50,533 bases of DNA from Armatimonadota bacterium (GTDB lineage Bacteria; Armatimonadota; DTGP01; JAHWJO01). Below are positions 13,147 to 27,355 of the stretch, piece by piece (within the stretch, counting starts at the first letter, position 1; every line of letters begins with the position of its first letter). The stretch covers positions 1 to 50,533 of the forward strand of contig JBBRGS010000003.1 in NCBI GenBank assembly GCA_038240635.1, written 5' to 3'. The position numbers and the translations under genes were made by a program. The notes under the pieces are model-generated. The model was given only the letters and a program-made list of their open reading frames with translations, was not told the origin of the DNA and did not search any database.

Positions 13147-13382
13147 GCGGGACCTCTGGGAAGGAGAGCGAGCGGGTTCAATCGTTCGGATGCGGGCGTG
13201 CGAAACGGTATCGCCAGGTTTTACAGCGGTGTTGCGGCGGCGTCGATATTGCCCCTCGTGGAGTGACGACCCCACGGGCGACTTAGCCAGGCGAGCATCG
13301 GCGCCAGATGTCGTTTCAGGATAGCATGACTCCGGGCGCGCCGCCGCCGCTACGCCCTCCGCCGAGGCGTAACCCGTCTTTT

Positions 13383-13412
13383 TTGCGGGAACCATGCCAC
13401 CAATGGTATAAT
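13383..13412 (+). promoter_or_regulatory. Sigma70-type promoter with extended -10
   Basis: TTGCGG-N18-TATAAT with TG at the extended -10 position (TGgTATAAT), about 180 nt before ATG 13593. Confidence 0.6.
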
Positions 13413-13592
13413 CGGCCTAATTGCCGCACGCGCGATTCACCATCCCAGGATGAACTCAGGAGGACGAAAGCATCGCCTTCGCCTTCCTGGGATTCATCCT
13501 TCTTCGTTTGCGGCATGGTCTCCCCCTCGTTAACCCCTGACAAACACTCGCCCGCCGGTCGCGCGAGACCTTACCCTTTGGAGGAAGTGTCC

Positions 13593-16500
13593 ATGCTGTT
13601 CCGCCGTCACCACGCGGTGGCCCCTTGCCCTGCGGAGGTCGGTCGCCTCGCCCTGGCCCTTGCGGTGTCGGGCGGCCTGTTCGTCTGCGGAACGGTAACC
13701 TCGCTGGCGGCGGGCCACCCCGCCCCCCGGCCCACCTCCTCCGCTAAAAAGACGGCCGCCCGCCCCAGCCCGAAATCGCCCCGCACGACGGCCCAGCCCC
13801 GCACGACGGCCCCGCCCCGCACGACGGCCCCGCCCCGCGTGGCGCAGCGCGAAGTGCCCATCAGCCCGCCTCCAACCACCCCTACCGCTCGATTGAAGCA
13901 GGCGACTCAGCACGCCGCCGTTCCCCCCTCCGAGTTCATCTCGGTGGACGAGATCAAGCCGGGGATGACGGGGTACGGCCTCACCGTCTTTCGTGGCAAC
14001 ACCATTGAGAAGTTCGGGATCACCGTCATTGACATCATGCGGAAGAACGCCTTCACCTTAGGCCGCGACCTCATCATGGTGCGCCTGAAGGGGCCGGTCT
14101 TTGAGAAGCGCAAGGCGAACGGCATCGCCGGGATGAGCGGCAGCCCTATCTACATCAACGGGCGCCTCGCCGGAGCCTACGCCTGGGGCGCCAGCAGCGC
14201 CATCGCGCCCAACGAGCCGGTCGGCTGGGTGACGCCCATCGCCTACATGCTCGAAGCGTGGAGCGACAAACTGCCGCAAAAGCCGCTGTATACCTCGCTG
14301 GACGGCGGCCTTAACGGCGCGGGCGATGCGGCGACCATGGCGGGGCTGCCGGGATTCTCACCCGCCGCCACGGGCGTGGACCCTCTCGTCTCCCAACTCG
14401 GCCTGGGCGCGGGTCTGGACGCCGGGGCGGATTCGGCGCCTCACACGCTGAACGTCGCCGGGATCAGCCCGATGGTCCTGCAACGACTCAATCGCAAGTA
14501 CACGACGATGGGCTTCCGGTTTCAGCAGGTCGTCAGCGGCGGCAAATCCACGATGGCGGATAAGGCGCCGCCGATTCAGGCGGGATCCGCGTTCGGCTTC
14601 GCGCTGGCGACCGGCGACGTGGAGTTCCAGGCGTCCGGCGGCACCGTCACGTATCGTAAGGGGAACCGGGTCCTCACGCTGGGCCACCCGGCCCTTTCCG
14701 ACGTGTCGCCACTGGTGCCGTACGGCCTTGGCCCCATCGAGGCGCCTCTCACCACTTCGTATGTGGTGGACATTCTGAGCGGCCTGCTCCTTTCCACCAA
14801 GTTGCAAAACAATGGCAGCGTCGTCGGCACGCTCACGCAGGACACCCTGTACGGCACGGCGGGCATCATCGGACGCAAGCCGAACCTCGTGCCGGTGACG
14901 GTGAACATCGTCAACCACACCACCGGCCAGCAGCGCACGGTTCGCTCGGAAGTCATGCGCCACCCGCTCCTGACCAGCGGCATCATTGAGGCGGTGGCCG
15001 ACGAAGCGATCCTCCGCACCCACACCTTCCCCGGCGACGCGATGGCCGAAGTGAAGACCACCGTCAACGCCGTGGGGATGAAGCCCATCGTTCACCGAAA
15101 CAGCTTCTACGCGCCGTACTTCATTGATGTCTTCGCGCTACAGGACCTGGACGACCTCCTTACCCTTCTCACCCGCAACGAGTTTGGGCCGGTGGACATT
15201 CAAAACGTCCGGCTCGATGTGGAGATTCGGCCAGGCCGCAAAACCGTCCGAATCGAACGCGCCTTCCTGGACCGCGACAAGGTGGAGCCGGGCGAAACCG
15301 TGCAGGTCGGCGTCGTGCTGCGGCCCTGGCGCAAGGACCCGTATGTGAAGACTATATCCATCAAGGTGCCGGAGTCGACCCCCAACGGCCGCACCCAGAT
15401 CGTCGTGACCAACGGCGCGACTCCCGTCAACATTGCGCCTACGCCGCCCCCCTCCACCACACCGACCTCGCCCTCAAGCGTGACGAGCGCCGCGTCGGTC
15501 GGCCCGATGTACAGCAATGTGCAGCAGATGATTGACCGGTATCTGGAGCTGGGCAGCAACACGGAACTCGTGACGCGGCTCTTCCTCACGCAAACCGGTG
15601 TCAATGTGCTCGGTGAGCGACTGTACGACGTGCCCGCGCCCATCGGCGAGGTGCTGCGCTCCGCCCGCGCTGTCGGCTATCGCCCCGAACGAGACGCGGT
15701 CAAGCAGGTGGATGATATGGGCGAGTACGTCATTGGGAGCGCCATCCTCCCCCTGACGATTGAGCGGAACAGCTACCAGGAGCAGGGGAAGACGACCGCC
15801 CGCCCGGCGCCAAAGGCCCCCACGGCTCCCGCTCTCTCCTCCACCACCGTCATCCCGCCCTCCAGCTCGCTCTCCTCCTCCGATATGAGCGAAGAGACGC
15901 CAGCCACTGAGCCGGTTTCCGCCACTCTCGCCGCTCCCACCGCCTTCAACCCGTCGGGCGTCAGCCCTCGCCTGCGCGCCCTGGGCATGATCGGCGGCGG
16001 CGTTCCACTGCGGCGAACCGGCGTCTGGACCCCGTGGCCCGCATCCGTGGCGCGGCCCGCTCAGGACGACTCGAACGTGGACGACCTCGCCGCCGATGAC
16101 CCCAAAGGCGTCGGCTCCGCGAAGGTCGCCGATGAGAAGACGGACGACAAAGCCGCCGCCGATAAATCAGATTCGGATAAAACTGACGCTAAAACCGATG
16201 ACAAGAGCGCAAAGAGCGACGATAAGTCGTCCGACAGCGCCTCCAGCGATAAATCGGATGACAAGACGAAAGGCCCCGGCCGCACGGCGACTCTCTGGAC
16301 CCAGAAGACGAAGGCCCAGTTTGAGCGCGGCGACGGCACGGGTGTCGGGGTGACAACCCTCGGCGACGTGCGGCTAGCCCTTACCCTGCGCCGCGTGCAG
16401 CGCCTCGACCAGGACGCGCAGGTCTGGTGTATGGCGGAGGACGGCAAGGGGGGCTTCTGGCTCGGAACGGGCAATTCCGGGCGCATTTATCCTCTCGGCG

Positions 16501-18440
16501 CGGACGAGAAACTCGGCGCGCCCATCCCGACGCAGGAGTTGACGATCAAGACGATGCTCCGCGCGCCGGACGGCCAGGTGTACGCCGCCGGGTGGCCCAC
16601 GGGGACGGTCTATCGCATTGAGGGCGACAAGGCGGTGGCGTTCGCCAAAACCGACGCTCGCTTCATCCTTGATATGAAGGCCGACGCCGCCGGAAACCTG
16701 TATCTCGCGGCGGGACCCGGCGGGCGCATCCTCAAAGTGACGCCCGCCGGAAAGGTGAGCGTCTTCTTCCAGTCGCCGCAGCCGCACGTCCTTGCGCTGG
16801 CGATGGACAAGGACGGCAACCTGATCGCGGGCACCTCGGACAGCGGCGCGCTTTACCGCATCGCCCCCAACGGGAAGGAAACCGTGCTGTTTGACCCGGC
16901 GGACAACGCCGTTTCGGCCCTTCTTGTGCGGAAGAACGGCGACCTGATCGCGGGGACCTCCCCCAAAGGCCGCATCCTCCGGGTCGTCCCCGGCGGCACC
17001 ACCCGCGTGGTGTATGAAGCGAACGCTCCCGTAATGGCCATGACTGAGGACCACGACGGCAACCTGTTCGCCGCCACAGGCAAGGACGTGGTGAAGATCG
17101 ATTCGGACGATACGGTGACGATCCTCGACACCAAGGACGTCAATCAGACGCTGGCGCTCGCGTGGCGTGACGGCTCCGGGTTGTGGGCGGCGAGCGGCAA
17201 TCTCGCGGCGGTGTACCACGCCGATCCTCAGAAGGAGACGGGCGAATACCTCTCCCCGGTCCATGATGCGCAGAATCCCGCCCAATGGGGCCGCGCGAGC
17301 TGGCAGGCGATCCAGCCGGACAAAACGCATGTGACGCTGCAAACGCGCACCGGCAACACCTCCGAACCCGATGAGTCCTGGAGCGCCTGGTCGTCGCCTT
17401 ATTCCAACAGCCAGGGAACGGTGATCCTTTCGCAGCCGGGCCGCTACATCCAGTTTCGGGCCACACTCACCTCCAGCGCCGGCGAGGTCAGCCCCGTTCT
17501 GAAGAGCGTGACACTCTCGTATCTCCCGGTTAACCGGCCTCCCACGGTCGCCTTCAGCGCGCCCACCGTCGCCGATCAACTGAACGGCAAGCAGACGCTG
17601 AAGTGGACCGCATCTGATCCCGATAAGGACACGCTCAGCTACGACCTGTTCTACTCCGAAGACGGCGGAAAAACGTGGAAGCCAATGAAGAAAGCCGAGA
17701 AATCGGATAAGTCCGAGAAAGCCGACGCCACCGCCGACACGAAGGAGAAGCCCAAAACCGATTCCCCGAAGAAGCCCACCGCGCCAAAACCTCCCGCGAC
17801 GGAGGAGAAACCCACCACCGCCGAAGCGCAGGACCTGATGAGCAAAATCACCGGGGAGCTGGATAAGGACACGACCCTCTCCGCCGAGGACCGCGCCCTC
17901 CTCGACGCCGTGCTCCCCAGCGTCGTTCGTGACGCCGCCAACCCGTCGCCGGAGAAGGAGATCAAGCCCGATCCGCCCACGCCCGGCTCCGATGTGGACA
18001 AGCCTCTCACCGAGACGAGCTTCTCGTGGGACACGACCGACGTGCCCGATGGCGACTACTTCCTGAAGATCGTGGCGACCGATAAACGCAGTAATCCCGG
18101 CGCTCCGCTTGAGGACGAGCAGGTTCTCGGTCCCGTGACGATAATCAACGTGAAGCCGAAAGCGGAACTGTTCGAGTCGGGGGCGGCGGTGAAGGATCGC
18201 GTTCTTACCGTGGAAGGCCGCGCCGACGGCGGTAAGGCGCCCATCGCCACCGTCTCGTATCGCGTGGACAAAGGCGACTGGTCGGCGGCGCTGGCTACGG
18301 ATGGCCTGTTCGACTCGCCGGTGGAGTCGTTCCGCGTGGAAACGGAGCCGATGACGCCGGGCGATCACACGGTGGAAGCGCGCGTCACGACGACGGGCGG
18401 GCTGAACGGCTCAGCGACGATGAAGATCACCGTGAAGTAG
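13593..18440 (+). CDS. Large secreted protein: SpoIVB/S55 serine peptidase domain + beta-propeller + Ig/FN3-like domains
   Basis: GGAGG RBS; signal peptide; AGMSGSPIYINGRLAGA (S55 catalytic Ser motif); repeated 'LAMDKDGNLIAGTS' blades; TRTGNT..PDESWSAWS; K/D-rich linkers. Confidence 0.85.
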   Translation: MLFRRHHAVAPCPAEVGRLALALAVSGGLFVCGTVTSLAAGHPAPRPTSSAKKTAARPSPKSPRTTAQPRTTAPPRTTAPPRVAQREVPISPPPTTPTARLKQATQHAAVPPSEFISVDEIKPGMTGYGLTVFRGNTIEKFGITVIDIMRKNAFTLGRDLIMVRLKGPVFEKRKANGIAGMSGSPIYINGRLAGAYAWGASSAIAPNEPVGWVTPIAYMLEAWSDKLPQKPLYTSLDGGLNGAGDAATMAGLPGFSPAATGVDPLVSQLGLGAGLDAGADSAPHTLNVAGISPMVLQRLNRKYTTMGFRFQQVVSGGKSTMADKAPPIQAGSAFGFALATGDVEFQASGGTVTYRKGNRVLTLGHPALSDVSPLVPYGLGPIEAPLTTSYVVDILSGLLLSTKLQNNGSVVGTLTQDTLYGTAGIIGRKPNLVPVTVNIVNHTTGQQRTVRSEVMRHPLLTSGIIEAVADEAILRTHTFPGDAMAEVKTTVNAVGMKPIVHRNSFYAPYFIDVFALQDLDDLLTLLTRNEFGPVDIQNVRLDVEIRPGRKTVRIERAFLDRDKVEPGETVQVGVVLRPWRKDPYVKTISIKVPESTPNGRTQIVVTNGATPVNIAPTPPPSTTPTSPSSVTSAASVGPMYSNVQQMIDRYLELGSNTELVTRLFLTQTGVNVLGERLYDVPAPIGEVLRSARAVGYRPERDAVKQVDDMGEYVIGSAILPLTIERNSYQEQGKTTARPAPKAPTAPALSSTTVIPPSSSLSSSDMSEETPATEPVSATLAAPTAFNPSGVSPRLRALGMIGGGVPLRRTGVWTPWPASVARPAQDDSNVDDLAADDPKGVGSAKVADEKTDDKAAADKSDSDKTDAKTDDKSAKSDDKSSDSASSDKSDDKTKGPGRTATLWTQKTKAQFERGDGTGVGVTTLGDVRLALTLRRVQRLDQDAQVWCMAEDGKGGFWLGTGNSGRIYPLGADEKLGAPIPTQELTIKTMLRAPDGQVYAAGWPTGTVYRIEGDKAVAFAKTDARFILDMKADAAGNLYLAAGPGGRILKVTPAGKVSVFFQSPQPHVLALAMDKDGNLIAGTSDSGALYRIAPNGKETVLFDPADNAVSALLVRKNGDLIAGTSPKGRILRVVPGGTTRVVYEANAPVMAMTEDHDGNLFAATGKDVVKIDSDDTVTILDTKDVNQTLALAWRDGSGLWAASGNLAAVYHADPQKETGEYLSPVHDAQNPAQWGRASWQAIQPDKTHVTLQTRTGNTSEPDESWSAWSSPYSNSQGTVILSQPGRYIQFRATLTSSAGEVSPVLKSVTLSYLPVNRPPTVAFSAPTVADQLNGKQTLKWTASDPDKDTLSYDLFYSEDGGKTWKPMKKAEKSDKSEKADATADTKEKPKTDSPKKPTAPKPPATEEKPTTAEAQDLMSKITGELDKDTTLSAEDRALLDAVLPSVVRDAANPSPEKEIKPDPPTPGSDVDKPLTETSFSWDTTDVPDGDYFLKIVATDKRSNPGAPLEDEQVLGPVTIINVKPKAELFESGAAVKDRVLTVEGRADGGKAPIATVSYRVDKGDWSAALATDGLFDSPVESFRVETEPMTPGDHTVEARVTTTGGLNGSATMKITVK
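13778..13838 (+). repeat. In-frame 18-bp tandem repeat (about 3.4 copies) encoding PRTTA(Q/P)
   Basis: gccccgcacgacggccc(a/c) at 13778, 13796 and 13814, plus a partial copy. Confidence 0.9.
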
Positions 18441-19004: not shown

Positions 19005-21380
19005 ATGCAGCCCATGAAATCTTCTCGCTTCAGCAAAACCTTTCATCCACGTGCCGTCGCCCTGAGTTTTCTGATGGGATTGCTGGCGCTTCTCTCTCCC
19101 CTGGCGCATGGCCAGCTGCTCTTCGCGCCCGGCAAGACCTTTTTTACCGGCGGCAGCCCACGCGGCATAGTCACCGCCGACGTCAACGGCGACGGTAAAC
19201 TCGATCTTCTGATCGCGGGCGGGCCGTCGGGGGGCATCATCCTGTTGACTGGAGATGGAAAAGGCGGATTTGGAACGGCGACTCCTCTCGCTTCCGGCAA
19301 TTCGGAAGCGCTGGCGGCGGGGGACTTCAATAAGGACAGGAAAGTGGATATTCTCTCCGTTGATGGGGCTGTCGGAACGGGTGGAATGGCGCTCCTTTCC
19401 GGCAACGGCGACGGGACGTTTCAGGTCATCACGGTCCTTCCCACTGGCTCCACCCCCATCGCGGTCGCCGCCGGGGATGTGACCGGCGAGGGCACACCGG
19501 ATTACTTCTCCGCTAACCTTCTGGGGAACAGTGTTACCGCCGTCCTGACGAGGACGACAAGCGTAACGTCCACCAACCTTCCCGTGAGCAGAGGTCCCGC
19601 GAACCTCCTGGTTGCGGATGTAAACGGCGACGGCAAAAACGATCTTCTCACAGCGTCTCAGAGCGAGGGCGTGGTCAGCGTCCGGCTGGGGAAGGGTGAC
19701 GGGACGTTCACTACCGCGCCCGATCTTCCGGCGGTTTCCGGCGCGACAGGACTGGCGCTCGGCGACTTCAACGGAGATGGGAAACCGGATATTGGGGTGG
19801 GCGGCGGTTCAACAATCGCGATCCTCCTGAACAAAGGCGGCGGCTCGTTCGACTCTCCGATCTCCACGGAAGCGGGTCGCAATATCCACGCGCTGGCGCC
19901 CGGCGACTTTAACGGCGACGGTAATCTGGATCTCGCGGTGGCGGATCAGGCCGACGGGTTTTTCGTCCTGCCGGGTACCGGCGGCGGCTCCTTTAATCCC
20001 CCCCTAAAAACTTACGCCGGGCGAACGCCTTATGGCCTGGCGGAGGGAGACTTTAATGGCGACGGCAAAACCGACCTCGCCATCACCGATAGCAGCGCTG
20101 CGAGCGTGACGGTACTGCTTCAGCAGACGCCAAATCTCAATGCCCCGGTCTTTTCCGCTCCCATCCCTTTGACCACCGGGGCGGGCGCCAGCGGGTTGGC
20201 GGTTGGAGAATTGAACGGCGATGGCAAAGTTGATCTGATGGTCGCCAACACGGGGGGGACCCAACAGGGCGGCAGCGTCAGCCTTCGATTGGGCAAGGGA
20301 GACGGGACGTTCGACTCCAGAGGGGACAGTCCCTTCAGCAGTCACCCTGATGCGGTAGCGTTCGGCGATTTCAACGGCGATGGGAAAGCCGATCTGGTCC
20401 TTGCGGTCATGGTGAACGGCGCGGGGAGCCTGCTTCTCGGTAAGGGCGATGGAACCTTTACCACTGCGACGGAGTTTACTTTGGGTTCCGGGCCGCATCA
20501 CCTTGCAGTCGGGGACTTCAACGGCGATGGGAAACTCGATCTCGCCTCCGCCAATAACGGGGCGAGCACGATTACGGCGCTGTTAGGAAACGGCGACGGC
20601 TCCCTGCGGCCGCCCCAAACATTTCCGGGCGGCGCTCTGCCGTATGGCCTCACGGCGGCGGATTTCAACGGCGACGGCAAAACCGATCTCGTCGCAATCG
20701 ATCACGCCGACAACGTTAAAAATGTGCTGATCCTCCTCGGCGGGAGCGACGGGATCGCCTCCGGTCTCTCCGTAGCGGGAGGTCGCAGCCTCTCAGGTCT
20801 CGCCGTCGGCGACTTCAACCGGGATGGCAAGCCCGATATCGCCACGCTGGACAGCTATTTCCGCACTCTGAGCATTCTGCTCGGCGCTGGAAACGGCCAG
20901 TTTCCCACCACAAAAACCTTTGGCGGCGCGGGGGATCGAGCGATGGTCGCGGGCGACTTCAACGGCGATGGCAATCCTGATCTCGCCATGACCGACTCCA
21001 AGGGCGTAGTGGATCTCTTCCAGGGGTCCGGTGAGGCGGGGTTACAGTTTGTCAACGCCTTTGCTGCGGGACAAGACCCCGACGCGCTGGCCACCGCCGA
21101 TTTCAACGGCGACGGAAAACCCGATCTGGCCGTCGTGGACAGGGCCGAAGGCGGCGTCCAAATCCTGCTCAATCAAACGCCCTCCTCCGGTGGAGGGCTG
21201 GCCGGGGACGCGAACGGCGACGGGAAAATCAGCGTGCAGGATGCCATCATCGCGCTACAGATCGTCGTCGGCATCATCCCTGGCAACGATCCCAGGGTTC
21301 CGAAGGCGGATGCGACCGGCGATGGGAAAGTCACCATTGCCGACGCCATTCTGATTCTGAGAAAAGCGGTCGGAATATAG
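19005..21380 (+). CDS. Secreted FG-GAP/VCBS repeat protein (14 repeats) with C-terminal dockerin-like domain
   Basis: 14 (G/A)DxNGDGxxDL-type repeats counted; C-terminal duplicated GDANGDGKISVQDA / ADATGDGKVTIADA; signal peptide ending AHG. Confidence 0.9.
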   Translation: MQPMKSSRFSKTFHPRAVALSFLMGLLALLSPLAHGQLLFAPGKTFFTGGSPRGIVTADVNGDGKLDLLIAGGPSGGIILLTGDGKGGFGTATPLASGNSEALAAGDFNKDRKVDILSVDGAVGTGGMALLSGNGDGTFQVITVLPTGSTPIAVAAGDVTGEGTPDYFSANLLGNSVTAVLTRTTSVTSTNLPVSRGPANLLVADVNGDGKNDLLTASQSEGVVSVRLGKGDGTFTTAPDLPAVSGATGLALGDFNGDGKPDIGVGGGSTIAILLNKGGGSFDSPISTEAGRNIHALAPGDFNGDGNLDLAVADQADGFFVLPGTGGGSFNPPLKTYAGRTPYGLAEGDFNGDGKTDLAITDSSAASVTVLLQQTPNLNAPVFSAPIPLTTGAGASGLAVGELNGDGKVDLMVANTGGTQQGGSVSLRLGKGDGTFDSRGDSPFSSHPDAVAFGDFNGDGKADLVLAVMVNGAGSLLLGKGDGTFTTATEFTLGSGPHHLAVGDFNGDGKLDLASANNGASTITALLGNGDGSLRPPQTFPGGALPYGLTAADFNGDGKTDLVAIDHADNVKNVLILLGGSDGIASGLSVAGGRSLSGLAVGDFNRDGKPDIATLDSYFRTLSILLGAGNGQFPTTKTFGGAGDRAMVAGDFNGDGNPDLAMTDSKGVVDLFQGSGEAGLQFVNAFAAGQDPDALATADFNGDGKPDLAVVDRAEGGVQILLNQTPSSGGGLAGDANGDGKISVQDAIIALQIVVGIIPGNDPRVPKADATGDGKVTIADAILILRKAVGI

Positions 21381-21442: not shown

Positions 21443-21958
21443 TCATGGGGTTTGCGAGGCGGCCTGATAAGTGACAGCTAAGTTCCGGTCGTTGTGAGAC
21501 AGACGGGCGATGGCCTTCAGACGCTCAATCTCAGGGGGCATGTCAAGGACGCTGAGTTCCCGGTTGTCGAGGGCGTTGATCACCCGCTCGGCGAGGCGGA
21601 TGGCGGCGAGAACCAGCAGCTCGTTCTCATACTCCACGTAGACGTGAAAGCGGCCACGAGGGTCCACGCGCCAGTTCCACTGGGTTTCACCGGCCAGCCC
21701 GGCATGAGGCGACGCTTGCCCTTGCAACTCGATGATGAGATGTTCGAGAAGGTGGGGGATTTCGGTGGACTGGCACTCCTGGCGGAAGGTCCAGCCCTGG
21801 TGATTGTCGCACTCGTGGCTCTCCAGGTGTGGGAAGAGCCGGAACAGCCTGCGGGGGAGGTGGGGCGCCTTGTCCGTAGTGCAGCGGTCGGGATCGGGCA
21901 TCTCCACCGTTAATTTGACTATCTTCTTCTCAAGGAAGATGACTTCCAGCACCCGCAT
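21443..21958 (-). CDS. Stand-alone cyanophycin synthetase N-terminal-domain-like protein (putative Zn endopeptidase)
   Basis: FPHLESHEC…F…TEIPHLLEHLIIELQ…GET…GRFHVYVEYENE parallels CphA1 N-domain LPxLxxHxC…GF…HxxEHxxLELQ…G.Y.V..EY; RBS GAAAGGA. Confidence 0.7.
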   Translation of the reverse strand: MRVLEVIFLEKKIVKLTVEMPDPDRCTTDKAPHLPRRLFRLFPHLESHECDNHQGWTFRQECQSTEIPHLLEHLIIELQGQASPHAGLAGETQWNWRVDPRGRFHVYVEYENELLVLAAIRLAERVINALDNRELSVLDMPPEIERLKAIARLSHNDRNLAVTYQAASQTP

Positions 21959-22136
21959 GGGTTTATCCTTTCTCTCCAAAAGAGAAAAATGAATCGGGAT
22001 AATAGCCGCCAGGGCCGCCATGACGACGGAAAGGGCGCCGGGATGACCCAGGTGTGTGAAGGGTTGAGGCTGGCAGAGAAAGTCTCGTTAGCGAAGGCGC
22101 TACCACCCTATCAGAAACGGCGGCCTCTGGCAAGCC

Positions 22137-22254: not shown

Positions 22255-22617
22255 TCAGCGCCCGCCCTGCTCCATCGCTTTCAGGGCTTCCGTCTCGGTG
22301 TCGAACATGAGGAAGATCGTGTTGAGGCGCGTGATCTTCAGCATGCGGGCGATGACCTGATTGCACCCGATGAGGGCGAGAGCGCCGCCTTCGGGCCGCA
22401 GCCGTTTCTTCGCGCCGAGCAGCGCCCCGAAGCCGCTGGAGTCCATGTAGCCGACATTCTCCAGGTTGATGAGGAGTTGGGTGTGCCCCTCTTCGATCAC
22501 GGAGGCGAGCTGCTCCTTGAACTGGGGCACGGTGTACACGTCCACTTCGCCGCTGATGTCCAGGACGGGGATGTCGTGTTCCACGCGGCGGCTGATCTCC
22601 AATTTGGGGGGTTCCAT
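22255..22617 (-). CDS. STAS-domain anti-sigma factor antagonist (RsbV/SpoIIAA-like)
   Basis: ISGEVDVYT…INLENVGYMDSSGFGAL with phosphorylatable Ser; alternative starts at 22644/22659. Confidence 0.92.
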   Translation of the reverse strand: MEPPKLEISRRVEHDIPVLDISGEVDVYTVPQFKEQLASVIEEGHTQLLINLENVGYMDSSGFGALLGAKKRLRPEGGALALIGCNQVIARMLKITRLNTIFLMFDTETEALKAMEQGGR

Positions 22618-22723
22618 CAACGACGCTCCCTTTCTCGTATCCATAAACCCTCTTTCCATATTCTGGCGACACTTCGGATGGGTTAACTGAACTATCGGTT
22701 GGAAGATGTACGCTTGTTTACGT

Positions 22724-24559
22724 TCATGAAGCGAGAGGCAGAGGCATTCCGAACGCCTCCATCCAGCCGCGCAACAGCCGGATACGGGTTGCCTCCTCCG
22801 ACGACGGTGCGAGGGGACGCCCGCGACCGTCCAGCATCAGCCCCACGACTCCGCCCCTGACGGTCGCCCGCATGAGTTTGCCGCGCCCGGCCCCCACATC
22901 GAAGCCCCGCGCGGGCGTGAGTTCCACTTCGGCGGTCTCGCCCACGCCCAGCGGCATGACCTTCACCTCGCCAATGCGCAGAGTCTCCCGCCGACCGTTC
23001 ATGCTCACCGCGCAGACCTCCTCCCCCGCGCGGGCGGTCCCTACGGGAGCGATGCAATCGCCGAGGAGGATGAGGCAGTCGCGCTCGAAGACCTGGGACG
23101 CCGCTTCAGGCAGGACGGTGGAGAGCACGCCGAGCTGTGGCATCATGAAGATGGAGTCGACCGCGAGGGTGGTGACGCCTTCCGGCTCCCATGCGTCCAT
23201 CATCATAAGGGCGGCCTGCTGGCGGAGGGGCGCGTGGCTCAGGACGCCGCCGCTCCCCACAATCATATCGAGGGCCATCATCTTTACCAGCGTCTGCCCG
23301 GTGCCGCCCTGCGTGAGTGCTTCTCCAATAGTACGCGTCTGCTGCACGCCCTTCAAGCCCCTGGCCAAAGATTTGTGGTGTTCAAACGCCAATCGGAGGG
23401 CTTCGCGGGCGACCGCCTGTTCCACATATAAATCATCCAGCGTCTGCGGCACGGTGGTCGGGCGGATCATCTTGTTGCGAAGGCGGTTGCGAAGTTCCTC
23501 TTCGGTGATGGAGAAGGGAATCCAGCGCATAAGGTTCGGGATGCCCGCCTCGGTCATCACGTTGCAGATGGAGTACGACATCCCCAGGTTGGCGCTGACA
23601 GTGCGGTTGAAGACCTCGGAGAAGACGCTGAACACGTCGGTAGTGGCGCCGCCGATGTCCACCGCCAGCACGTCAATCCCCCGCTGCGCCGCGATGGTCC
23701 GAATAATCTCCCCGACGGCGTTGGGCGTCGCCATGATGCCGCGACTGGTCCACGTGAGGAGTTTGCTGTAGCCGGGGGCTTGCTGCATGACGTGGTGAAG
23801 AAACAGTTCGTGGATGGCTTCGCGGGCGGGAAGGAGGTTCTCTTTCTCCAGAGTGGGCCGCAGGTTGGGGACGATGTGGAGGTCCACGCGGTCATCCAGC
23901 GTCTTCGCCACAGCGTCCGCGGCGCCCTGATTGCCCGCGTAGATGACGGGGACTTTGGCCTCGCCACCCAGGCGCGGGCGGGGGTCGGCGGCGACGATCA
24001 TTTCGGCGATTTCGACCAGGTGGGAGACGGTGCCGCCGTCGGTGCCGCCGGAGACGAGCAGCATATCGGGGCGAACCTGCCGGATGCGCTCCACCTTCTG
24101 ATACTCGCGGCGACCGTCGTCCACCGCCACGGTGTCAATCACGATGGCCCCGGCGCCGAGGGCGGCCCGGTTCGCGCTCTCCGCCGACATCGCCTTGACG
24201 ACCCCGGCGACCATCATCTGAAGGCCGCCGCCCGCGCTGGACGTGGAGAGATAGAGGTCCACGCCGACCTGGGGGCCGGTGGAGGGGACGATGATGCCGC
24301 CATCGGGGTCGGGGGCGAGGAGGGTGAAGCCGGAGAGTTCCTCCAGTTCGCGGACGGCGTTGCGGACGCCGACGGTGACGTCGTCGAAGGGGGCTTCGAC
24401 GGTGGTGGGGGCCTCGCCGCGATGGGTGAGGCGATACTCGGCGCCGACGCGCTGGATGAGGATGGCTTTGGTGGTCGTGCTGCCGCAGTCGGTGGCGAGG
24501 ATGGAGTGAACGGCGTCCAGGGTGGCGTCCTTCCCGGGGAGTGTCGGCCCGCGCCTCAT
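22724..24559 (-). CDS. GlmL/MutL-family ASKHA ATPase (glutamate mutase L-like, putative B12-enzyme reactivase)
   Basis: [60 protein letters not shown]. Confidence 0.8.
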
Positions 24560-24815
24560 CTTATCACTTAAGGGGAAGGGCTTCAAGCGGAGGGGAGAGG
24601 GTTTTCAGGACCGTCCCCAACCCGCTACACTCCTGATAAGCCCGGTCTTCCTCTATGCAACGAATGAGAAGGGTAACGCTCCGAGAAATTCCGCATTGAA
24701 CGACACTTCACATAAGCGCGGGATGACGATTCGGAAGAGGAAGGGAACAACGCGCCGACTCATGGCGTCATGCGATTGCCGGGATCAGGCGGCCCATCGT
24801 CCAGGGAGCGGGAGC

Positions 24816-25601
24816 ATGAAGAGGACCCCACGAGGTTTCACGCTGATCGAGTTGCTGGTGGTGATCGCCATCATCGCCGTGCTGGCCGCCTTGCTGTTCC
24901 CCGTGTTCGCCCAAGCGCGCGAGAAGGCCCGGCAGGCGGCCTGCTCCAGCAACCTTCACCAACTTGGCATCGCGTTTCAACTCTACTGGCAGGATGAAGG
25001 TGAGGAGTTCAATTTTTATGGGGTGGGCGATCCCACTCGTGATGATTACGGAGTTTACGGCAAATGGCAGTGGGCGATTGATCCGTACCTGAAGAGTCAG
25101 GAGGTCTGGCGTTGTCCTTCCAATCCCAACTCGGACTGGAGCGCCAGAATCTACAAAGATCATCCCGAATACTTTGCTTACAACAAGCGGCCGCCCAAAC
25201 CGACCTCCTACGGGATTAACTCCTGGTTAATTTATGATGACGGCAGATGGGTCGCCAATGGCTTTTACTTTAACTACAGTCAACTACGTGACCCTTCGTT
25301 CAATATTTTAGTGGGGGAAATCTTGATATTTGATGTAATATTTCCTTCCGGGTACGGAGATCACCGAGATTTTGGGGATGCAGAACCTGACCCAGACTGC
25401 GGAATCATTCTACGTCACGGGGCTGTGACCAATTATCTTTTTTTTGATGGGCACGTCAAAGCCCTGCGTCCCGTCCAGACAGCCCTTCCCAGGCAGAGAT
25501 GGTTCCCCCCGGAACTCCACCTTGACAGAGGCTCGGATATTAAGGTTCAGCAATTGCTTGATTTTTATGTGAGTCATACTTGGTCCAAAGCCTGTCGCTA
25601 A
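24816..25601 (+). CDS. Prepilin-type N-terminal cleavage/methylation + H-X9-DG (DUF1559-like) protein, copy 1
   Basis: G|FTLIE class III signal, [41 protein letters not shown]. Confidence 0.92.
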
Positions 25602-25645
25602 CCTGACCAGCTTTCCTCCCCCCCACGGAGACCTTCCCTCCTCCT

Positions 25646-25674
25646 CCTTCTCATCGTTCCATTCGTATCAAGCC
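25646..25674 (+). repeat. Conserved intergenic motif, copy 1
   Basis: CCTTCTCATCGTTCCATTCGTATCAAGCC. Confidence 0.85.
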
Positions 25675-25716
25675 GGGAGCGCTCCAGGCTTCCTTCCAAA
25701 GAACCGAGAGACGGTC

Positions 25717-26481
25717 ATGAAGAGGACAAAACGAGGTTTCACACTGATTGAGCTGCTGGTGGTGATCGCCATCATCGCGGTCCTCGCCGCGCTGCTGTTC
25801 CCCGTGTTCGCTCAGGCGCGGGAGAAGGCGCGACAGGCCGCCTGTTCCAGCAACCTTCATCAACTCGGCATCGCGTTCCAGATGTACTGGCAGGACAATG
25901 ATGAACAGTTCGGTTTTTACCAAGGGGATGACCCCACGCGAGACGATTATGGTCTGTTTGGAAAATGGCAATGGGCAATTGATCCATACGTCAGGAGTCA
26001 GGAGGTCTGGCGGTGTCCTTCCAATAATTCGAGCGGTTGGTCACTCCAATCGCTCGAAATCCACCCCGAAGAGTTCGCTTACTCTCATCGGCCTCCTAAG
26101 CCGACGTCTTATGGATTGAGCGGTTTTTTGATAGCCGGCGGAAATTATGGGAAGGAAGCCCTTTCATTCAGTGACTTCTCAGACCTTAACTCCTACATCC
26201 TGGTGGGGGAAGTCTTATACGGAGATACCCTGTCTCCCCTTAATTTTGTGACGCGGCCAGTAGTTGAGGGGTTGGATCCAATCTGTGGCAGTGTCTTTCG
26301 GCATGGAGCCGCCTCCAACTACCTCTTCTTTGACGGCCACGTCAAGGCCCTTCGCCCGATCCAGACGATTCTCCCCCATCAATGCTATGTTCCGGAGGAA
26401 GCCTATAAGGGGTCCAACACGACAGCGCAAGAATACGCTGAGTATGTTGTGAAGTCTAAATGGTCCAAAGCCTGTCGCTAA
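25717..26481 (+). CDS. Prepilin-type H-X9-DG (DUF1559-like) protein, copy 2
   Basis: Same motifs; [12 protein letters not shown]. Confidence 0.92.
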
Positions 26482-26518
26482 CCCTCCACCCTTCTGCCCA
26501 CGGAGCCCCCCTCCTCCA

Positions 26519-26547
26519 CCTTCTCATGGTTCCATTCGTATCAAGCC
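26519..26547 (+). repeat. Conserved intergenic motif, copy 2
   Basis: CCTTCTCATGGTTCCATTCGTATCAAGCC (28/29 identical to copy 1). Confidence 0.85.
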
Positions 26548-26572
26548 TCCTCCAAAGAACCGAGATGGCGTC

Positions 26573-27355
26573 ATGAAGAGGACCCAACGAGGCTTCACAC
26601 TGATTGAGCTGCTGGTGGTGATCGCCATCATCGCCGTGCTCGCCGCCCTGCTGTTTCCCGTGTTCGCCCAGGCGCGCGAGAAGGCGCGGCAGGCCGCCTG
26701 TTCCAGCAACCTTCATCAACTCGGCATCGCGTTCCAACTCTACTGGCAGGACGAAGGCGAGGAGTTCAACTTCTATATAGTAGACGATCCCACTCGTGAT
26801 GATTACGGCGGATTCGGCAAATGGCAGTGGGCGATTGACCCGTATCTGAAGGGCCAGGAGGTCTGGCGCTGTCCCTCCAATCCCAACTCGGACTGGAGCG
26901 CCAACTACTATAAAGCGCATCCGGAGTATTTCGCTTATCATAAGCGGCTGCCAAAGCCGATATCTTACGGTATTAACTACTGGTTAGCTGATGATAACCC
27001 CAGTTGGTCAGTGAATGGTGGCCTTGACTATGGTCAGCTTCGCAACCCTTCATCCTATATTTTGGTAGGCGAAACCTTGTATGGCGATGGGATAGACCCT
27101 TATGCCTTTGGTGATGTTCGAAACTTCGAAGATTTAGAACGTGATCCGGTCTGCGGATACATTTTTCGGCACGGCACTGTGACCAACTACCTATTCTTTG
27201 ATGGACACGTCAAGGCTCTGCGTCCTGTCCAGACAATCCTTCCCAATCAGCGGTGGTGGCCCCCCGAACTTCGTCTCACTAGAGAATGGAGTAATAAAGA
27301 CTCTCAGAATGTTATGGTTGGTTTTATGAATCGCTGGCCGAAAGAATGCCGTTAA
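26573..27355 (+). CDS. Prepilin-type H-X9-DG (DUF1559-like) protein, copy 3
   Basis: Same motifs; [12 protein letters not shown]. Confidence 0.92.

Follow-up and report, generated by a model that had tools for sequence, protein, structure and literature searches.

A stand-alone homologue of the cyanophycin synthetase N domain with a conserved putative metal site in an Armatimonadota bacterium

The DNA analysed here (the window) is a stretch of 50,533 nucleotides, positions 1 to 50,533 of contig JBBRGS010000003.1 of an Armatimonadota bacterium (assembly GCA_038240635.1), and all coordinates are those of the window. Its minus strand carries an open reading frame (ORF) with an ATG at 21958 and a stop codon at 21443-21445. 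The 171-amino-acid (171-aa) product, called P0001, is a free-standing homologue of the N domain of cyanophycin synthetase (CphA1). The gene and the features associated with it are as follows.

21443..21958, minus strand: coding sequence (CDS) of P0001, a 171-aa stand-alone protein resembling the CphA1 N domain (ORF list and translation, PF18921, fold match)
21740..21817, minus strand: codons of the putative metal/catalytic site, H48 to H73 (H48 second shell, C50, H69, E72, H73; codons checked against the sequence)
21967..21977, minus strand: Shine-Dalgarno-like sequence GGAGAGAAAGGA (GGAG/AAAGGA), 8 nt 5′ of the ATG (consensus resemblance, direct reading)
21999..22026, minus strand: sigma-70-like promoter, TCGTCA, 16-nt spacer, TATTAT, matching at 9/12 positions (consensus scan; weak evidence)

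P0001 contains the sequence H48-E-C50, followed after 18 residues by H69-L-L-E72-H73, L-I-I and E77-L-Q79, and further on G102-RFHVYVEY110. A preliminary description of this DNA had reported a 171-aa protein with these motifs, a ribosome-binding-site-like sequence of its own and a stop codon; all of these are present, on the minus strand. An in-frame ATG upstream, at 22021, would give an alternative product of 192 aa. The start at 21958 is favoured over it because several homologues begin at query residue 1, the first residues of P0121, P0125, P0126, P0127 and P0130 all being aligned there. The promoter consensus scan returned one site, compared with a mean of 0.4 in shuffled sequences. If the promoter-like match is correct, the alternative ATG would lie inside the promoter.

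When P0001 was compared with Pfam, it matched PF18921 (Cyanophycin_syn, the CphA-like N-terminal domain) with an E-value of 1.4e-12 and a score of 48 bits (cut-off 27). The match extends over residues 16-130 of the protein and positions 2-113 of the 115 in the model, and no other Pfam family was found in P0001 at E <= 0.1. The NCBIfam model of the entire cyanophycin synthetase, TIGR02068, gave 54.1 bits against a cut-off of 850, aligned over profile positions 13-153 of 862. CphA1 consists of three domains, N, G (ATP-grasp) and M (Mur-ligase-like), and scores above 850 bits, whereas P0001 ends at 171 aa and stands free of G and M domains. A defence or phage origin of P0001 was rejected, as searches with PADLOC and PHROGs gave no match.

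An AlphaFold model of P0001 was built on an alignment of 150 sequences (alignment A1), and had a mean pLDDT of 96.0 and a pTM of 0.89. Foldseek comparison of the model with the PDB placed CphA1 structures at all of ranks 1-9, with TMq values of 0.73-0.77 for CphA1 enzymes bearing the motif and 0.59-0.63 for the motif-less enzyme of T. morbirosei. A VIA search of 48,161 chains, using model residues 1-171, gave Z scores of 14.7 for CphA2 (7ta5) and 12.9 for CphA1 (7lgm), the next score being 7.2. Superposition of a model on the CphA N domain had been proposed as a check in the preliminary description, and these values (TMq up to 0.77 and the two leading Z scores) provide it. At the sequence level, phmmer detected only CphA1 chains among the PDB sequences at E < 1 (7wac, 7lg5 and 7txv; E 2.9e-6 to 1.7e-4), and a profile of the family matched CphA1 with an E-value of 1.8e-17. 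The N domains of SuCphA1 (PDB 7LG5/7LGJ/7TXV) and TeCphA1 (7WAC/7WAE) have the same fold as P0001 over its whole length, and both P0001 and the CphA1 N domain comprise approximately 160-170 residues.

In the phmmer alignment, H48, C50, H69, E72, H73 and E77 of P0001 correspond to H57, C59, H79, E82, H83 and E87 of SuCphA1. The 7txv chain is an E82Q mutant of Synechocystis CphA1, and its glutamine aligns with E72. In SuCphA1, residues C59, H79 and H83 bind an ion, tentatively Zn2+, E82 is the general base, and H57 and E87 together orient H83; the residues of the metal site are needed for activity (PMC9262961). This hydrolytic site, described as a 'cryptic third active site', was recognised in 2022, and 83% of CphA1s are reported to have the full motif (PMC9262961). 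The isolated SuCphA1 N domain is active in trans, where it gives primer independence, so the fold can act alone (PMC9262961). P0001 and the CphA1 N domain have in common the Cys...HxxEH triad with its glutamate base, the second-shell histidine and glutamate, and a G-x-T strand. The preliminary identification of P0001 as a stand-alone homologue of the CphA1 N domain is upheld by the Cys, His, Glu and His at the aligned catalytic positions, together with PF18921 and the fold. The Cys/HxxEH motif that it described is also present, but the Cx19H spacing given for CphA1 does not apply here: P0001 has C-x18-H and CphA1 has C-x19-H.

We consider P0001 to be, with reasonable probability, a small cytoplasmic mononuclear metallohydrolase that acts on a peptide or amide substrate other than cyanophycin; that it binds a metal, that it is a hydrolase and what kind of substrate it has are all predictions. 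Such an enzyme would be soluble, cytoplasmic and single-domain, of about 19 kDa, and a free-living member of the CphA1 N-domain fold. By homology, C50, H69 and H73 would coordinate a single metal ion (Zn2+ or a different divalent cation), and in the inverted HxxEH motif E72 would serve as the general base and activate a water molecule, while H48 and E77 would form a second shell that orients H73 and sets its tautomer. Like its counterpart in the CphA1 N domain, the strand G90-x-T92-x-W94 may contact the backbone of the substrate, and the substrate cleft may be lined by this strand together with the family-specific residues N52, E61, E66, W94 and W96. The most likely target would be a cytoplasmic molecule, not cyanophycin, in which a peptide or amide bond is cleaved. 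As a fallback, the preliminary description had suggested a peptidase for another polyamide; a peptidase for another substrate still appears to be the best reading of the sequence.

P0001 is a typical member of a family of stand-alone proteins of approximately 130-280 aa. A word-indexed search of proteins of 94-300 aa yielded 540 matches from 885 candidates. Each of the 120 matches listed contains PF18921; their lengths are 155-239 aa and, the query excepted, their identities 57-78%. The named sources among them are mostly Armatimonadota. A search among proteins of 301-2000 aa gave a single match, a 331-aa protein in which PF18921 is the sole domain. When 1.84 billion representatives were searched exhaustively, 631 matched at E <= 1e-3, and the best 150 of these 631 are all 77-278 aa in length. 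The pattern C-x15-24-HxxEH is found in 136 of 151 sequences (the query and the best 150 of the 631 representatives). Twelve of the 15 motif-less sequences are short or partial alignments and resemble fragments, and three are full-length (P0145, P0154 and P0162), P0145 having an internal deletion. A spacing of exactly 18 residues, C-x18-HxxEH, occurs in all 119 of 119 close relatives and in 245 of 254 motif-bearing sequences overall.

The family extends beyond the phylum: one subgroup comes from metagenome-assembled genomes (MAGs) of Coriobacteriia, Eubacteriales and Gammaproteobacteria, and another from Eggerthellaceae. A locus search with P0181, from the 'CFN...EYLC' subgroup, found no relative. 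In two genomes a second, distant paralogue was observed besides the orthologue (G197:C24:4311-4724 and G179:C53:8459-8839; 28-30% identity, in frames of 191 and 193 aa). The proteins bear automatic names: 'hypothetical protein', 'cyanophycin synthetase family protein', 'cyanophycin synthase-like protein' or 'Cyanophycin synthase-like N-terminal domain-containing protein'. The same automatic name is attached to protein-atlas clusters, and 'cyanophycin synthetase family protein' is misleading. The domain and its catalytic site are known already, and the stand-alone proteins are visible in databases under these names. Literature searches found no study of stand-alone PF18921 proteins, and free-living homologues of the CphA1 N domain are not mentioned in the parts of PMC9262961 on which we draw.

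The metallohydrolase reading has to be weighed, alongside the observed homology, fold, site conservation, absence of cyanophycin genes, stand-alone architecture and family distribution, against several points that speak against it. The placing of C50, H69 and H73 on one metal site rests on homology, that is, on aligned positions and the fold match. In alignment A1, C50, T65, H69, E72 and H73 are invariant and P43, N52, F58, E61, E66, G90, T92 and W94 are conserved in at least 90% of rows, but the invariance of the Cys, His, Glu and His positions arises partly by construction, the 109 distant rows having been chosen for the motif. Both P0154 and P0162, although full-length, have lost the cysteine and HxxEH (they read, for example, …PVILMF… and …PHVLQH…). 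Inactive derivatives therefore appear to exist, and some stand-alone members may act without catalysis. No match to P0001 was found in 158 of 201 Armatimonadota genomes, and the gene is dispensable for many relatives. Finally, no gene neighbour that might suggest a substrate is conserved across lineages; among 20 Armatimonadota loci of about 16 kb, sharing was confined to close kin.

Some of these points, together with the role of the CphA1 N domain in holding the nascent polymer (PMC9262961), are what would be expected if P0001 were a non-catalytic adaptor or regulator, binding a metal or a polymer or peptide, with a function that goes back to the N domain's part in anchoring. The loss of the motif in two full-length members and the lack of a conserved enzymatic partner are consistent with this. 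However, the glutamate base and the three ligands are kept in every one of the close relatives and in nine-tenths of the wider set, a stricter conservation than the fraction of CphA1s with the full motif (PMC9262961), and a non-ligand glutamate conserved to this degree typically points to catalysis. We regard a non-catalytic role as distinctly unlikely, and retain the metallohydrolase reading.

The preliminary description had suggested that P0001 is a free-standing endo-cyanophycinase or a generator of primers, acting in trans with a cyanophycin synthetase encoded elsewhere. Two observations favour this: P0001 keeps all the catalytic residues of the cyanophycin-cleaving N domain, and the isolated N domain can prime a primer-dependent CphA1 in trans (PMC9262961). 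The residues that contact the polymer, however, are not conserved. The cyanophycin-contacting side chains of SuCphA1 are S60, R70, E90 and Y110, with R100 nearby (PMC9262961). In P0001, S60 is replaced by D51, R70 by Q60 (E61 in the profile alignment), E90 by G80, R100 by E91 and Y110 by F104; this mapping is by sequence alignment, and a gap near R70 shifts one residue between the two alignments. E61 is present in 135 of the 150 rows of A1 and E91 in 81. Two arginines of the SuCphA1 cyanophycin site would accordingly align, on the sequences, with conserved acidic residues, both glutamates, in the stand-alone family. Conversely, the family has its own nearly invariant residues, N52, E61, E66 and W94, with W96 also well conserved, in 108 of the 150 rows of A1; N52, W94 and W96 have no counterpart in the aligned CphA1 sequences.

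The distribution of cyanophycin genes also argues against a role in cyanophycin metabolism. The source genome (4.1 Mb in 400 contigs, 93% complete) contains a single PF18921 match, P0001 itself. No cphA above the cut-off was found in it, the best other partial matches, none above 113 bits, being Mur-ligase-like and ATP-grasp paralogues, and no cyanophycinase was found. A search of the genome for cphA had been suggested in the preliminary description; its statement that cphA, cphB and ATP-grasp or Mur-ligase domains are lacking in the window agrees with our results, as neither the window nor the genome contains another piece of cphA or a cyanophycinase. When a sample of 201 Armatimonadota genomes was searched with P0001, matches were obtained in 43. 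In two of these (G124 and G169) the match lies inside open frames of 1016 and 899 aa, and these are the only 2 of the 201 genomes with cphA above the cut-off; both are without the short form. The short form is present in 41 genomes, the source genome included, and none of the 41 has cphA. In the class that contains the Eggerthellaceae, 138 of the 151 genomes sampled each carry a single match (130 of them above the Pfam cut-off), all matches in the class lie in open frames of 136-389 aa, and cphA was found in none of the 151 genomes at E <= 1e-80. As a positive control for this search, the same query found both real cphA genes of the Armatimonadota sample. The proposal of an endo-cyanophycinase or primer generator in trans is not sustained by these results, and we consider it scarcely credible.

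The inverted HxxEH motif occurs in other metalloenzymes. In the M16 'inverzincin' peptidases (pitrilysin, insulin-degrading enzyme), as in the CphA1 N domain, it lies on an active-site helix beside a beta sheet (PMC9262961). The third ligand of M16 enzymes is a downstream glutamate, whereas the candidate third ligand of P0001 is the upstream C50, and M16 enzymes reach approximately 1000 aa (PMC9262961) whereas P0001 has about 170. No Pfam M16 match was found in P0001 at E <= 0.1, and the fold matches listed by Foldseek and VIA include no M16 chain. Peptide deformylase resembles the CphA1 N domain in the geometry of its site, and its ligand set is the same combination of two histidines, a cysteine and a glutamate (PMC9262961). 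Deformylase and LuxS both appear to differ from P0001 in fold and in sequence order, and neither gave a Pfam match. LuxS is an HxxEH protein of about 160 aa with the same ligand set of two histidines, a cysteine and a glutamate. Foldseek did return LuxS (1joe and 1jqw, ranks 17-18), but these matches are insignificant (E 0.25-0.28, TM 0.22-0.25); weak as they are, they are compatible with a distant relationship, and no match of P0001 to the LuxS family PF02664 was found in Pfam.

The shared ligand set suggests a further alternative, in which P0001 is a metal-dependent enzyme whose substrate is a small molecule and not a peptide chain, such as an amidase, a deformylase-like hydrolase or a LuxS-like lyase, acting on a derivative of an amino acid or cell-wall precursor. 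Gene order in the Eggerthellaceae-containing class may point in the same direction. In 19 of 30 loci examined there, the gene for the N-domain-like (N-like) protein lies directly upstream of, and on the same strand as, a gene for a pyridoxal phosphate (PLP) aminotransferase, to which no equivalog could be assigned. Four loci from Eggerthellaceae MAGs (L068-L071; for example L069:26-5560) contain a tight row of serS, an unknown protein, the N-like gene, the PLP aminotransferase and a gene resembling D-Ala-D-Ala ligase (Ddl). The unknown protein, of approximately 420-490 aa, has no Pfam or NCBIfam match, and the ligase-like gene scores 222 bits against a cut-off of 243. This neighbourhood, however, is absent from the 20 Armatimonadota loci and from the window, and gene order in the class is conserved, so that the pairing with the aminotransferase may be plain synteny; we regard it as a hint of amino-acid or cell-wall-precursor chemistry that falls short of evidence. 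The only Pfam match of P0001 is to PF18921, and the source genome, with two deformylases and an S-adenosylhomocysteine (SAH) hydrolase, has no obvious gap to be filled. We judge an enzyme of this kind unlikely. The narrower idea that P0001 replaces a missing deformylase or LuxS was rejected: both deformylases and the SAH hydrolase are present, and LuxS was not found in the genome.

A spacer of about 400 nt precedes the aminotransferase gene in four Coriobacteriia loci, and gave no match to Rfam. Four Coriobacteriia/actinobacterial MAG loci (L060, L061, L063 and L064) have an ORF of approximately 900-950 aa that shares the strand of the N-like gene and lies upstream of it at a distance of one to three genes; in both loci scanned (L060 and L064) Pfam assigns it to the membrane protein family UPF0182.

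Returning to the metallohydrolase reading, its broader form is that the stand-alone proteins constitute a distinct and ancient family of minimal Cys-His-His metallopeptidases or amidases, approximately 150-200 aa long, whose housekeeping function has nothing to do with cyanophycin, that nearly all Coriobacteriia have a single copy while occurrence in Armatimonadota is patchy, and that the 'third active site' of CphA was captured from a free-living protein of this kind. We put this forward tentatively, with somewhat less than even confidence. The authors who described the CphA1 site concluded that evolution fused three enzymes into cyanophycin synthetase (PMC9262961). The only version of the fold that has been studied is the N domain inside that enzyme, and free-living relatives, whose site is kept more strictly, are common, including in genomes without cyanophycin genes. 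In the stand-alone family there is now a concrete candidate for the 'third enzyme' in its ancestral form. The family is also apparently a core, uncharacterised enzyme of the Coriobacteriia, a class that includes human gut bacteria. P0001 itself is an ordinary member, and the interest lies at the level of the family, as a conserved, probably catalytic relative that is independent of cyanophycin.

Upstream of the P0001 gene on the minus strand, as the preliminary description had noted, lie two further genes.

22255..22659, minus strand: STAS-domain gene, anti-sigma-factor antagonist family (PF01740, E 1.2e-22; TIGR00377, 84.9 bits)
22724..24586, minus strand: gene for a GlmL-like protein of 620 aa (Pfam 'MutL' PF13941, E 4.5e-126)

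The GlmL-like protein scores 220 bits, below the GlmL equivalog cut-off of 475, and no glutamate mutase was seen beside its gene in the window. Between the STAS gene and the P0001 ATG at 21958 there is a gap of 296 nt. This gap and the promoter-like site suggest a separate transcript, and the P0001 gene is probably transcribed on its own.

The arrangement raises the question of a module in which P0001 is the third component, for instance as a protease that is controlled by a partner-switching STAS protein or has that protein as its target. Three relatives share this arrangement of GlmL-like, STAS and N-like genes on one strand: L011 belongs to the same family, L012 and L031/L057 to the same order. 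It was not found in the 1.5-kb flank of L033, which belongs to the same order, or in 18 loci from other classes, and the gap and promoter-like site stand before the P0001 gene. The synteny does not extend beyond the taxonomic order and lends the module no functional support. Throughout the phylum the GlmL-like gene is near-universal, a core gene with matches in 175 of the 201 genomes; those listed are 59-81% identical. Its co-distribution with the N-like gene, found in 43, was rejected, as the two do not co-vary. We consider a GlmL-like/STAS module very improbable.

Neighbours in the 20 Armatimonadota loci were clustered from simple ORF calls, which are crude in GC-rich DNA; in one case a wrong-frame ORF was taken over the STAS gene. 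The Pfam functions of the recurrent neighbours are unrelated to one another: a Wza-like exporter, FtsE/FtsX/M23/STN, alcohol dehydrogenase, heparinase, sulfatase, MoeA and rhamnosidase.

Other genes were observed on the plus strand of the window. Convergent to the P0001 gene lies the gene at 19005-21380, whose 791-aa product combines 14 FG-GAP-like repeats with a dockerin domain at the C terminus. It is preceded, at 13308-18440, by an ORF of 1710 aa with long low-complexity linkers rich in Pro, Thr, Ser and Lys. At 24522-27355 there are three adjacent paralogous genes for proteins of approximately 254-359 aa, the first with a prepilin-type N-terminal segment; these look like a tandem family of pseudopilin-like proteins.

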